Source: Octopus vulgaris (taxonomy: Eukaryota). Taken from it: a DNA stretch of 64,000 nucleotides. The first letter of the stretch is position 1; each line of letters opens with the position of its first letter. Below the pieces are notes generated by a model, which saw nothing but the letters and a program-made list of their open reading frames with translations, did not search any database and was not told where the DNA came from. A program made the position numbers and the translations under genes. Of the stretch, positions 29,666 through 59,106 are shown piece by piece. The stretch lies in the NCBI GenBank assembly GCA_951406725.2, contig OX597814.1, forward strand, positions 95,046,001-95,110,000, in the 5' to 3' direction.

Positions 29666-30560
29666 GGTATGTAAATATAAATAAATGTATATATGCATAT
29701 ATGTATGTATTATTTATATTATTATTATATGATTGAACGCCAGGCATCCATTTTCAAGTAAGTTTATCTTAATAATTCCGATGCGGCTCTATCCCGTATT
29801 GTTCCCTCTCTCTCTTTCTCTCTCTCCCCTTTCGTTTTCTCTCTCTTCCTTCCTCTAATTTTTTATCTCCCCTTCTCCTCCTTTTGTTTTTTTTTTCTCT
29901 CTCTCATCCTGTCTCTAATTCTTTTTTCTCCCCTTCGCCCTTTTCTATCTATCTCTCTATCTTTCTCATTCTTCCTGCTTTACTCTCTCGTTGCTCACAC
30001 GTGACCATCCGCCATCTTTCTTTTCCTAACTTGAGCTTTTTCCTTTCCTTCCAGCCTGCCACACAGATCAGATGTATTTTTGTCTGTCTCCTTTCCTATC
30101 CTTCCTCTTGTCAAAGCTTGTTCCTCCAGCGTTCTCCACCTCACCTCGTTATGGCTTAGCAGCCCTCACTGATTTGTTTTTAGTGTCCTGTTTTTGTTAC
30201 CAACTTTGACCCTCCACAAATCCTAAATTTTATTTTGGTTTTGCGAGAGCAATTGTTTCATCGATGGCACATCTTTGTCGTAATTGCTCGCAATGTGGAG
30301 TAGATAAACAGTCGACAACTGACGAAGGGTCGTTCTTTATGTTACTTGTCCCGTTTTTTCATTTGTTTCTTTCGTTGTTTGCAAAAAAAGTTCGTATTCC
30401 ATGTTTCCGTATGTCATGTTGTTTACGTTTTATGACGTCCTGCACACATATATGCATATGTATATACATATATATGTAATTATGTACATATATGTAAGTA
30501 TGTACATATATGTATGTATATATGCATATATATATATATATATGCATATATACATACATA
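29500..30560 (+). mobile_element. Non-coding Penelope-type element with partial tandem pseudo-LTR (~870-bp unit)
   Basis: Direct repeat gcaaaaaaagttcgtattccatgttt..tcatgttgtttacgttt.tgac at ~29511 and ~30381; caa|gtaagt donor-like motif at ~29755; hammerhead-like motif at 30253-30330; homologous to 43065-43380 and 50025-50780. Confidence 0.65.
30253..30330 (+). ncRNA. Hammerhead-like ribozyme motif, non-canonical strand order (copy 1)
   Basis: cacaTC-t-ttgtcg ... gctc-GCAA-tgtg ... cgacaa-CTGACGA-A-gggt; helices I, II and III can all pair; GAAA is mutated to GCAA. Confidence 0.55.
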
Positions 30561-43064: not shown

Positions 43065-43380
43065 AACGACCCTCCATGTTTGTTTTCGTTCGATTTCCTT
43101 GTCAAATTCTCCACTGTCAAATTTTTGTTCCCAACTTTGACTCTTTATAAATCCTAATTTTTTTTTTTTTTGAATTTATGGTAGTAGCTGTCTTTGAAGA
43201 CTTATATTGTCGTTGAATGCTCGAAATGGATAGTAGATAAGACAGGCGACAACTGTGTTTACTTCTCTGTGTTTACTTGTCCTATTCTCCCTTTTTTCTC
43301 GTTGTTTATGTATTTAACACGTTTGTTTACGTATTTCATGTTGTTTGAACCGTTGGTGATGTCCAGTGCCTATGTGTGTG
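43065..43380 (+). mobile_element. Penelope-type pseudo-LTR fragment, same family as 29500-30560
   Basis: tttttgttcccaactttgac...aaatcctaa and cgtatttcatgttgttt shared with 30190-30440 and 29560. Confidence 0.7.
43188..43255 (+). ncRNA. Hammerhead-like motif, non-canonical strand order (copy 2, core partly deleted)
   Basis: ctgtctt..cttaTA-ttgtcg..gctc-GAAA-tgga..aagacag-g-cgacaa-CTG, then deletion of the rest of CTGANGA. Confidence 0.45.
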
Positions 43381-49368: not shown

Positions 49369-49474
49369 CTTGTAAATATGCGTGCGTATTAAATGAATAT
49401 GAGAAAGGCAGGAGATAAAGTGCGATTTATTCGTGATCAGAGTTTTTCGAAAACCGAAATTCTACTGTATATAT

Positions 49475-49848
49475 ATTCTTTTATACTTTTACTTGTTTCA
49501 GTCATTTTTACTGTGGCTATGCTGGAGCACCGCCTTTCAGTCGAAGAAATCTACCCCTGGACTTACTTTTTGTAAGCCTGATACGTATTCTATCGGTTTA
49601 CGGAGACGTAAACACACTAAGATCGGTTGTCAAGTGATGGTTGATGACAAACACAGACACAAATACACAAGTATATAAAAATATATATACGACAGGTTTC
49701 TTTCAGTTTCAGTCTACCAAATCCATTCACAAGGCTTTGGTCGGCCCGAAGCTATAATAGAAGACACTTGCCCAAGGTGACACGGGACTGAACCCGGAAC
49801 CATGTGGTTGGGAAGCAAACTTCTTATCACACAGCCATACCTGTGCCT
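49475..49848 (-). mobile_element. SINE family A
   Basis: Reverse-complement homology to family A. Confidence 0.85.
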
Positions 49849-50024
49849 ATATGTGTATATATATATATATACATACATACATACATACATATATATATTC
49901 ATACATACATACATATATATTCATATGTGTGTGTGTACTTATATGTATGTGTGTATGTTTATAAATGTATTCAAACATTTATATATTTTTGCGTGTGTTT
50001 ATATATATATATGTATATATATAT

Positions 50025-50768
50025 ATTGAAATAAAACTTACTTGGAAGAAGACGACGCGTGGCGTTCGATCATATAATAACAATTTAATAAATAAAACCT
50101 ATACATACATACATACATATATGTACATACCTACATCTATATGTATATATACATGCATATATGGGTACAGGAGACCACAAAAAAACCTAGAACACAACGA
50201 GAAACGAAAACATAAAAACAAAACAAGGAAACGGACTTTTTCCTAACAACGAAAAAACAGAGTACAAGACAACAACACAAGGAACATTCCCCTTCTTCAG
50301 CTGCCCCTGTTTCGACTCATTGCGTGTTTCGAAGGTAAGGGCAGAATACGACTACATTGAAACAGTCCTTCCCGCAAAGCGAATTAAATAAAAAAATTTT
50401 GCGGAGGGGTAAAAAAAAGGTGACAATAACAGGACGTAAAAGCAATACAAATAAAGAAAAAAAACAGTACAAATAAAGATAAAAAAAGTAAAAGACAGGA
50501 CAAGGAGAAACCAACAATAAGGGTTTTTTTAAGCCTGGACGGTGGAAAAATTCATTTGAACGCATTCCGAAGAAGGGGAATGTTCCTTGTGTTGTTGTCT
50601 TGTACTCTGTATTTTTCGTTGTTAAAAAAAAGTCCGTTTCCTTGTTCTGTTTTTATGTTTTCTTTTCTCGTTGTGTTCTAGGTTTTTTGTGGTGTACATA
50701 CCTACATATGGATGTAGGTATGTACATATATATATGTATGTATGCATATGTTTTATTTATTAAATTGT

Positions 50769-50780
<12 letters not shown>
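50025..50780 (-). mobile_element. Penelope-type element: pseudo-LTR plus inverted 5' pseudo-LTR copy
   Basis: ~210-225-bp inverted arms (~50072-50298 and ~50569-50778) around a ~270-bp spacer; homologous to 29500-30560 including caa|gtaagt; flanked by (TA)n. Confidence 0.75.
50289..50365 (-). ncRNA. Hammerhead-like motif, non-canonical strand order (copy 3, both core motifs intact)
   Basis: Minus strand ctgtttc..cgtaTT-ctgccc-tta-ccttc-GAAA-cacg..gaaacag-gggcag-CTGAAGA-A-gggg. Confidence 0.6.
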
Positions 50781-51029: not shown

Positions 51030-51343
51030 GTGATTCTGTGGTAAGACGCTTGCTTCCCCGCCACATGGCTCTGGGTTCGGTCCCACAGCGTGGAACCTTG
51101 GGCAAGCGTATTTTACTATAGCCTCGGGCTGATCAAAACCTTGTGAGTGGCTTTGGTAGATGGAAGCTGAAAGAAGCCCGTCGTATATGTATATATATAT
51201 ATGTATGTGTGTGCGTGTGTGTGTGTGTGTGTATTTGCCCCCCTATCACTACTTGACAACCGGTGTTGGTATATTTATGTCCCCGTAACTTAATGGTTCA
51301 GCAAAAGACACCAATAGAGTAAATACCAGGCTTTAAAAATAAG
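51030..51343 (+). mobile_element. SINE family A, 3'-truncated
   Basis: Homology to family A. Confidence 0.8.
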
Positions 51344-51725
51344 TCTTTAAATCTTCTTTTAGGTTTACGCCTATAGCGTTTCTCCTCTGCAAGCTCACCA
51401 TAAAACAGCTGTTTCAGCATGCGTTCATCCGCCATTCGAACAATATGGCCACACCATCTCATTTGGTTCCTCAAAATCATAGCTTTAATTGAGGCAATGC
51501 CTACAGATGCAAGGGCATCTGTATTTGTGATAAAAGAACTCCATTTAATGTTTAAAATGCGATGAAGGCATTTTTGGTGGAATTGTTCTAACAATGTAAA
51601 ATGCCTTTCATAACAAGTTCATGTTTCACAAGAATACAACAGGGATGGTAAGACAAATGATTTGTAAAGAGCCAGCATTGTATTCTTATGTGTCCAAGTT
51701 ACCAAATACATTTGCTGCCCTTTGA
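51344..51725 (-). pseudogene. RTE-clade LINE ORF C-terminal fragment
   Basis: LYKSFVLPSLLYSCET..LEQFHQKCLHRILNIKW..QMRWCGHIVRMADERMLKQLFYGEL..KPKRRFKD. Confidence 0.85.
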
Positions 51726-56376: not shown

Positions 56377-57063
56377 ATCTATGGATTTCACTACCTGCAT
56401 AAATTAATCTTAATTATATAAATAGGAGAGTCTAAAATATTTGTCTATCTATATAATTTCTCTGGCCACAGAAAAAGAGTGAGCTACATTGGTTCTTTAT
56501 TGAAATGTTATCAGTACCTGACTGCCTGTCTCTAACTGTCCAAAGAAGTACTGTATATACAGCAACGTTTATTCTGAGCTCTATTAAATGGGAGAAACGA
56601 TTTATATAAATATCTCATTTTTAGTTGCTTGTTCGATTAATAATCTAATGAAGCTTAGGTAATTTCCTTGTTTACGCTGTCTTTTAAAGTCTACTCTACA
56701 TCACTCGTGGACATCGTGTTCAATAAGTTATTTGCCGATTCCTGTTACCTGGACTATCATATTCACTCTACCAGCGCACATGTTAAAAGTGATGGTCAAC
56801 ATCCGACAAGATACGGAAAATTTGGAAAGCACCACAACTGTCCCATGATCTATGGATTTCAGTACCAGCATAAATTAATCTTAATTATATAAATACGAGA
56901 GTCTAAAATATTTGTCTACCGACAAGATACGGAAAATCTGGAAAGCACCACAACTGTCACATGATCTATGGATTTCAGTACCTGCATAAATTAATTTTAA
57001 TTATATAAATAGGAGAGTCTAATTTGGAAAATTTGGAAAGCACCACAACCGTCACATGATCTA
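56377..57063. repeat. ~116-bp tandem repeat (about 2.3 copies, 56803-57063) plus solo half-unit at 56377-56448
   Basis: atctatggatttcagtacc.gcataaattaatcttaattatataaata.gagagtctaa and ggaaaat.tggaaagcaccacaac.gtc.catgatcta repeated. Confidence 0.9.
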
Positions 57064-58662: not shown

Positions 58663-59106
58663 GGATCTTTTCGGTTTGAACGGCAGTTTTTTTCTAGCGG
58701 TGCCATATGAAATTGTCACCCATAATTATGACCCTAGTATCGATCTATTGCATTTCAATCTCTTTTAGGATTAGGGTTAGTTAGGGATAGGGTTAGGGTT
58801 AGGGTTAGGGGTGGGGGGAAGGGTATCTATTTTTCTTCACAAATGTAAATAAACCCAATCTGTTTCTTAAACGAGGGACATATTCATGCGGCACAGAATG
58901 TTTTCAGCTCAATAAACGTATTTGATTGGTTGAAATTACAGAAATTGAAGTAAAAAACAACAAATATCTTACAAACTATAGAATTTTCTCAATAAAGCCA
59001 AGAGAAAAAGATCTTTAATAAACACATTCTACCAGTATACGAAGTTTAAAATTTTTTAGGTACCTAGAAATTATGTTAAAAACTGCCGTTCAAACCGAAA
59101 AGATCC
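58663..59106. mobile_element. Young MITE, Merlin-like, carrying TTAGGG repeats
   Basis: Perfect 29-bp TIR ggatcttttcggtttgaacggcagttttt, perfect 8-bp TSD gaaaaaag (58655-58662, 59107-59114), (TTAGGG)-like tract 58765-58810. Confidence 0.9.

Follow-up and report, generated by a model that had tools for sequence, protein, structure and literature searches.

The stretch of DNA analysed here (the window) comprises 64,000 nucleotides of the Octopus vulgaris genome. Its minus strand carries, at 50024-50577, a 5'-truncated, non-coding repeat of the Penelope type (family A; unit length about 800-840 bp) that ends in a 49-bp tail (50072-50024) followed by (TA)n. Inverted relative to it, on the plus strand (50569-50776), lies a likewise 5'-truncated second arm of the same repeat that is 86% identical, also ends in (TA)n, and meets the first arm at a short common TTCTTC word. 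Relatives of the family are arranged in head-to-tail tandems of about 800-840 bp units, including natural pairs spaced 836 nt (L199) and 822 nt (L066), and the hallmarks of Penelope-like insertion (5' truncation, tandem and inverted copies, a tail, and a microsatellite target) are all present. The (TA)n targets, 5' truncations, partial tandems, inverted 5' copies and short tails are shared with the Naiad clade (Craig et al., 2021; PMC8557442), from which our repeats differ in that families A-C are non-coding and in that the tail measures 49 bp rather than the 30-40 stated there. At 50044-50033 (minus strand) the tail contains CAAGTAAGT, a splice-donor-like word with which each tandem unit starts and which is reminiscent of the Penelope 5' UTR intron. 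The element is flanked by a different abundant repeat, whose two copies (49474-49875 and 51037-51345) are oppositely oriented, and the window also holds a short TTAGGG array (58765-58810) and a 116-bp tandem duplication (56803-57022).

A first-pass annotation of the sequence had pointed to a permuted hammerhead at 50289-50365 of the minus strand, preceded by a hairpin (ccgcaaa/tttgcgg). The elements it listed are there, and the hairpin occupies 50404-50372. Read in the 5' to 3' direction, the motif begins with a strand CCCCU (X; 50409-50405) that pairs with the strand after A9 and does so in the minimum free energy fold. The 5' arm of the hairpin, H0 (50404-50372), adjoins X and its 3' arm adjoins G10.1, the first G of GAAGG (50371-50367), which is the true 5' strand of helix II. 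Next come the 5' strand of a helix P0 (50365-50359), the distal continuation of stem III, the 3' strand of helix III (CGUA; 50350-50347), U16.1-H17 (50346-50344), and the 3' strand of helix I (CUGCCC; 50344-50339), which a 3-nt linker separates from block G (50335-50323; CCUUC of helix II, GAAA, and CACG of helix III). The 3' strand of P0 (50313-50307) adjoins the 5' strand of helix I and the core (GGGCAG and CUGAAGA; 50306-50294), and a strand X' (AGGGG; 50293-50289) follows directly after A9. The predicted cut falls between 50345 and 50344, a position suggested by analogy to the hammerhead core and by the truncation pile-up described below. Block G was assigned by direct inspection and family comparison, P0 by family comparison, and helix I and X' by family comparison together with covariation. 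The resulting strand order is X, H0, II5', P0, III3'-UH-I3', II3'-GAAA-III5', P0', I5'-CUGANGA, X', with the core segments CUGANGA, GAAA and UH adjoining three helices.

Helix II had originally been drawn between ccttc and the gggg that follows the core, as in the type-SGC hammerheads (HRIMA-1 and variants; Eckert et al., 2023; PMC10085705). Instead, ccttc pairs with the upstream GAAGG, and because the G-run pairs with a segment 110 nt upstream that adjoins H0, the CUGANGA block is split at A9/G10.1 by a predicted four-way junction. The non-circular permutation claimed earlier has held, since the core letters and the NUH triplet are in place and helices I and III covary, while the wiring of helix II has not; the hairpin does not simply precede the motif but, flush with both X and G10.1, is part of the predicted ribozyme. 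Our motif and type SGC have in common an S block, a linker of about 3 nt that joins helix I to helix II, a G block, I5'-CUGANGA, the core letters and a non-circular order (S-G-C), which also sets our motif apart from the circularly permuted hammerhead types I, II and III. In type SGC, block C is whole and forms a Watson-Crick helix II after CUGAUGA and one base, and an extra helix joins the flanks of block C (PMC10085705). By contrast, helix II is here supplied from the leader, the 5' flank of block C pairs with the leader (P0, which extends stem III), the 3' flank pairs with X, and X and H0 bring the two chain ends in at A9/G10.1, so that neither an intact block C nor a flank-joining helix is found.

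In the 2.8 Gb of genome searched, the G and C blocks written as YCGAAA-N18-34-CTGANGAWGGG yielded 9,274 matches, against 31 for the reversed pattern; first-look candidates for families A, B and C numbered 2,660, 2,217 and 5,008, figures that are not copy numbers. We compared 43, 28, 23 and 18 copies of families A-D, respectively. The strand before GAAA has a perfect upstream partner in each family (GAAGG/CCUUC in A and B, GAGCAA/UUGCUC in C, GACACC/GGUGUC in D), and the strand after A9 pairs with X (CCCCU/AGGGG, GACCCU/AGGGUC). Watson-Crick cells make up 95, 97, 91 and 90% of the upstream helix II in families A-D, and 38, 40, 36 and 23% of the type-SGC helix. Since the sets were picked with fuzzy patterns that include the compared strands, it is the change between families that counts. 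In an alignment of 28 sequences, two-sided changes are present in helices I and III, in helix II when drawn with the upstream strand (A-U to G-C), and in X, which changes from C-G to A-U in family C. The type-SGC helix, which is mostly G-U, shows none; we relied on pair types here because related sequences beat shuffles in the covariation tool. The linkers A9-X', X-H0 and H0-G10.1 are 0 nt long in all four families, and the linker between helices I and II is 3 nt in families A-C and 1 nt in D. X is weak in family D (50% Watson-Crick), and the nested minimum free energy fold of family A is another hairpin. P0 was mis-registered by MAFFT in alignment A1 (75% paired) and its assignment therefore rests on evidence outside that alignment, including the four-family comparison.

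We also examined a less biased set, chosen by the G and C blocks only, namely the first 100 of the 9,274 matches. The S block is kept at 58 of these 100 sites, and among the 58 the upstream helix II (four or five of five Watson-Crick pairs) forms at 53, helix II, X and H0 together at 38, and the type-SGC helix (four of five) at none; the failures that we inspected were mostly 5'-truncated. Among 78 parsed viral-contig matches (of 80 listed), the S block occurred in none and the three helices in one, and shuffled leaders produced the three helices together in 0.6% of 4,300 trials. Helices I, II and III are intact at 109 of 247 unique sites, whose copies are not independent of one another. The NUH triplets at these sites are GUU (52), GUC (24), GUA (19), AUC (7), AUA (3), AUU (2), UUA (1) and UUC (1); H17 is never G, N7 is variable, being U at 63 sites, A at 42, and G and C at 2 each, and G10.1-C11.1 is present in 109 of 109, a count that is partly built into the parser.

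A pattern derived from the published 3' end of Naiad_Ovul found 286 matches in the genome (control, 0), and a fourth family of the motif, family D, matches the 3' ends of Naiad_Ovul and Naiad_Obim. At one family D locus a Naiad-like reverse transcriptase (RT) C-terminal frame, compared by eye, lies upstream of the motif. Among the best 30 Naiad RT C-terminal loci, 13 carry the motif in sense orientation 770-1,370 nt downstream; a fourteenth regex match downstream of these loci proved not to be the motif. An autonomous Naiad encodes an ORF with an N-terminal GIY-YIG and a C-terminal RT domain. No ORF is linked to families A-C, the window copy is non-coding, and a motif screen of the ORFs upstream of 20 diverse motif sites revealed none that is RT-like; families A-C presumably originated from, or depend on, Naiads. 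Families A-C and D have the same ribozyme layout and helix I sequence and share no alignable colinear sequence. The genome also contains a young family of the Penelope type in which many frames of 781 aa are intact and terminate in GIY-YIG (G000, L127, L132 and others). As a candidate parent it was rejected, since the descriptor found no sense-downstream motif at any of 30 GIY-YIG loci; CTGANGA is absent close behind the stop codon in most of the 30 loci of this family. With the covariance model, two A/C-type copies were found on the opposite strand at two GIY-YIG loci (L137 and L124), and we took these to be separate insertions.

The split-core layout is not confined to the octopus. We read by eye the last approximately 600 bases of 30 of the 54 Naiad consensus sequences in File S5 of PMC8557442 and recognized it in nine 3' ends of otherwise unrelated sequence from five phyla: Bfor (ctenophore), Chem-3, Amil and Movir-2 (cnidarians), Plae (acanthocephalan), Dst-4 (ostracod), and Obim, Ovul and Esco (cephalopods). 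Helix I of Bfor is only 2 bp long and helix II of Esco has decayed. The Plae end combines X (AGAGG/CCUCU), an 8-bp H0, helix II (GGCCCC/GGGGCC), an 8-bp P0, GUA, and helix I (GAGGAG/UUCCUC). The junctions of these ends are flush, except that Movir-2 and Bfor have U-U or UU-UU at A9 and that a single U precedes helix II in Chem-3. An in-register helix II cannot be formed by the strand that follows A9 in Naiad-4_Dst, Amil and Plae. Of the 21 ends without a split core, 17 showed no such layout in the part read, and in four (Parc, Nbra-3, Hpol and Smim) the order is the ordinary one and loop II is long, which led us to reject the idea that all Naiads flagged HHR_half_core are split-core.

The 3' ends hold further candidate structures. 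Those of Dst-1, Dst-2, Dst-3 and Ppla contain the core half CCCCTGACGA without a parsable layout, possibly a further variant. A common 3' UTR motif, roughly GRCGGGTG ... GCTYACT ... CACCTG, recurs at the same place in Chem-1, Chem-2, CGi, Pmar, Skow-1, Pfla-1 and Pfla-2 and is a second candidate structured RNA. The ends of Naiad-1_Movir and Naiad_Mley include stretches that resemble the twister ribozyme consensus, which suggests that Naiads lacking the split-core hammerhead may carry other self-cleaving RNAs.

Two rival explanations of the conserved pairings can be judged from these comparisons. One holds that the type-SGC fold, made from CCUUC and the G-run after CUGAAGA, is the active one and that X, H0 and the upstream strand serve as its off-switch. 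If G-U is counted, the G-run of families A-C can form four pairs with this partner, and the arrangement then resembles SGC-1 in having G10.1-C11.1 and a single extra base. Yet this duplex shows no two-sided change, reaches four Watson-Crick pairs at none of the 58 sites, and is impossible in register in Dst-4, Amil, Plae and Chem-3; its median stability is -3.1 kcal/mol, and the two helices that would have to give way to it have -6.2 and -8.6 kcal/mol. We consider it improbable that the motif works in this way. The other explanation, chance pairing in a high-copy repeat, draws on the shared descent of copies within a family and on the modest z-scores of single folds (-2.9 to +0.6). Against it stand the compensatory changes between families, the shuffle, reversed-pattern and viral controls, and the recurrence of the layout in unrelated sequences from five phyla, and it can for practical purposes be set aside.

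With a covariance model built from 28 copies, the window was found to hold three motif copies. Besides the one at 50284-50415 (minus strand), there is a family C copy whose GAAA has mutated to GCAA (30203-30335, plus strand) and a decayed, family C-like copy from which CUGANGA has been deleted (43134-43265, plus strand). The description of the minus-strand copy as the most complete is therefore correct among the three, and its helix I indeed differs at three of six pairs while being fully Watson-Crick (CUGCCC/GGGCAG as opposed to UUGUCG/CGACAA); the copy belongs to another family. A block-order descriptor also matched the window once, at this site (score 12), and gave one match (score 11) in ten shuffled windows. 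Within the window no Rfam family reaches its gathering score, and a type II reading through an internal GUC fails as it leaves no helix I. The copy had moreover been recommended as the best natural template for an assay, an advice that we cannot endorse. Position 50347 is A, which breaks pair 15.2-16.2 of helix III, and is G in 28 of the 30 closest copies (the window copy itself being counted); the best nested fold is an alternative hairpin of -36.0 kcal/mol, against -22.8 kcal/mol when P0 and helix III are enforced. With helix III broken and the competing hairpin stronger, it is a poor template and likely slow or dead. The motif is real and unusual; the window copy is worn.

What, then, might intact copies do? 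Judged from their sequences, the split-core hammerhead probably cuts the RNA of the element after the predicted NUH triplet. Intact copies would fold into a ribozyme in which the continuous strand II3'-GAAA keeps helix II stacked under G12-A9 and X stacks on H0; the two crossing strands would create a four-way junction between A9 and 10.1, the step at which a single conserved extra base is bulged in other Penelope hammerheads (PMC4209133). P0 would continue stem III and terminate within 0-3 nt of the outer ends of both helix I and helix II. In hammerheads, helices II and III stack on each other and their far ends lie distant (PMC10085705), and metazoan Penelope hammerheads reportedly act as dimers (PMC4209133). 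In our model of a head-to-tail dimer, the tip of the long stem III/P0 hairpin, which comprises the S and G blocks, would dock on another copy at its base, formed by the two halves of block C; such a dimer would satisfy all pairings for any stem length. Because the stem tip of one copy would dock on the base of the other, cutting would need two copies, as are present in tandem transcripts. Although the minus-strand segment 50280-50410 contains all six helices, a single-copy construct might consequently not cut if two copies are required. The opened core may also be dead, since the natural hammerheads described so far have at most 1-2 nt between CUGANGA and helix II (PMC10085705).

Alternatively, the same split-core ribozyme could assemble within one copy, a sub-case of the split-core reading rather than an additional one, if a kink-turn or a flexible junction between helix III and P0 turned P0 into a strut that reaches back to the tips of helices I and II. 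In a kink-turn, two helices are separated by a 3-nt bulge and, after it, tandem G-A pairs. Family D exhibits such a pattern (GA adjoining helix III, a 3-nt bulge, GA, U-U), which is strict at 15 of 109 sites, with GA on both loop strands at 72 of the 109, and which is degenerate in the other families; it renders a single-copy fold plausible in family D. The window copy is without the 5' GA. An extra hairpin occupies the helix III-P0 spot in Bfor and Chem-3, and published type-SGC ribozymes, some with a comparable 0-nt link, cleave during transcription (PMC10085705). Speaking against assembly within one copy, the far end of the II/III stack is where the tips of helices I and II are located, and by hand estimate the stem is too long or too straight to fold back in Dst-4 (helix III of 9 bp, a 1-nt bulge, P0 of 5 bp), Amil (11-12 bp, a one-sided bulge, 10 bp) and Plae (5 bp, a 3-nt bulge, 8 bp), in each of which it ends 0-2 nt from the tips. 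We therefore regard the single-copy arrangement as possible but rather unlikely, and we infer the head-to-tail dimer with only a slight preference over it.

If the dimeric split-core hammerhead cuts, it would trim tandem precursors to RNA of unit length. Reverse transcription, with its priming site close to the tail, would then stop at the cut, and uncut or recircularised RNA would give rise to longer copies. We looked at where genomic copies end. An earlier sample was blind to ends located 3' of GAAA and was replaced by 94 copies of families A and B, retrieved through an anchor that lies 3' of the predicted cut by about 130 nt. The anchor has 1,781 matches, of which 100 places were listed and the first 90 used; seven copies were dropped by eye as deletions or artefacts (n = 87). 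Per 1,000 nt at risk, 5' ends number 1.9 at +24 to +135, 14.4 at 0 to +23, and 2.7 at -60 to -1. Between 0 and +23 past the predicted cut, 21 ends were observed where 3.0 were expected (Poisson probability about 1e-11), in an interval that had been suggested by the earlier sample, with which five loci are shared; the best 24-nt interval starts at -4. In one inverted pair (L335), the junction lies at the predicted cut and uses helix III complementarity.

Stalling of the reverse transcriptase at a stable fold would predict the same pile-up. A hammerhead-derived fold might accordingly persist without cutting, as a place where the Naiad protein binds or pauses, with the truncations as RT stalls. 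About half of the copies (44 of 87) run at least 25 nt through the site, and the ends are spread over the 24 nt from 0 to +23 rather than concentrated at 0. Moreover, metazoan Penelope hammerheads cleave poorly in vitro (PMC4209133), and for a Poseidon element one report states that cleavage is not needed for insertion in vitro and that no RNA ends mapped to the cut (PMC11167929). On the other hand, the core letters, G10.1-C11.1 and an H17 other than G are kept while N7 and every helix vary (by eye across five phyla), and the pile-up stops near the cut and not at the 3' edge of the fold. These observations make a non-cutting role unlikely to our minds, and the split-core hammerhead that cuts remains the reading we prefer.

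Several known systems come close to this motif. Types CSG and GCS have the same cyclic order of the blocks C, S and G, with chain ends that lie between blocks and not, as here, inside block C (PMC10085705). The type I hammerheads of Penelope elements and non-LTR retrozymes (Cervera and De la Peña, 2014; PMC4209133) likewise sit in the terminal repeat of Penelope-type elements or in tandem non-coding units, with G10.1-C11.1 and the same insertion point at 9/10.1; for the minimal ones, a dimeric mode of action and a function in the processing of tandem RNA have been proposed. They differ in their short helix III and single bulged base, in place of which our motif has a long stem III, a non-circular order and two helices. 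Tandems are found here too, but the ribozyme is not type I as it is in the units of non-LTR retrozymes.

In the literature that we found on permuted hammerheads, ribozymes of Penelope-like elements and Naiads, hammerheads of Octopus and cephalopods, G10.1 insertions and four-way junctions, the layout is undescribed, which does not prove its absence from print. As far as their accessible parts go, a retrozyme preprint from 2026 uses type I descriptors only, a ribozyme survey from the same year does not mention the layout, and Perreault et al. (PMC3088659) report core insertions of just 1-2 nt. The published type-SGC descriptor, which requires CUGAUGA(U)G and admits no linker longer than 15 nt, would miss the motif (PMC10085705). 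The sequence features indicate an RNA that would act as a hammerhead; it falls outside the definition of type SGC and is best regarded as a variant of its own. More tentatively, and with somewhat greater doubt than confidence, we suggest that it represents a seventh topology among natural hammerheads, one whose catalytic strand is interrupted by a four-way junction and that assembles only head-to-tail between two copies: an RNA copy-number sensor that would divide tandem retrotransposon transcripts into units, retained by Naiads ranging from those of comb jellies to those of octopus, its cut site marked in thousands of insertions.

If this is true, two printed statements would be overturned. 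The permutation scheme with its six arrangements assumes that CUGAnGA and the adjacent paired bases are inseparable (PMC10085705), so that block C could not be interrupted, and Naiads are reported to lack canonical hammerheads, with some flagged HHR_core or HHR_half_core (PMC8557442). The type-SGC RNAs stem from metatranscriptomes, none being described there in the genomes of known organisms (PMC10085705); non-circular permutation would move from environmental RNA into animal genomes, in thousands of copies. An A9/G10.1 entry point that accepts whole helices, together with a two-copy switch, would be useful for ribozyme engineering, and the truncation pile-up offers a genomic handle on the in vivo role of Penelope hammerheads.
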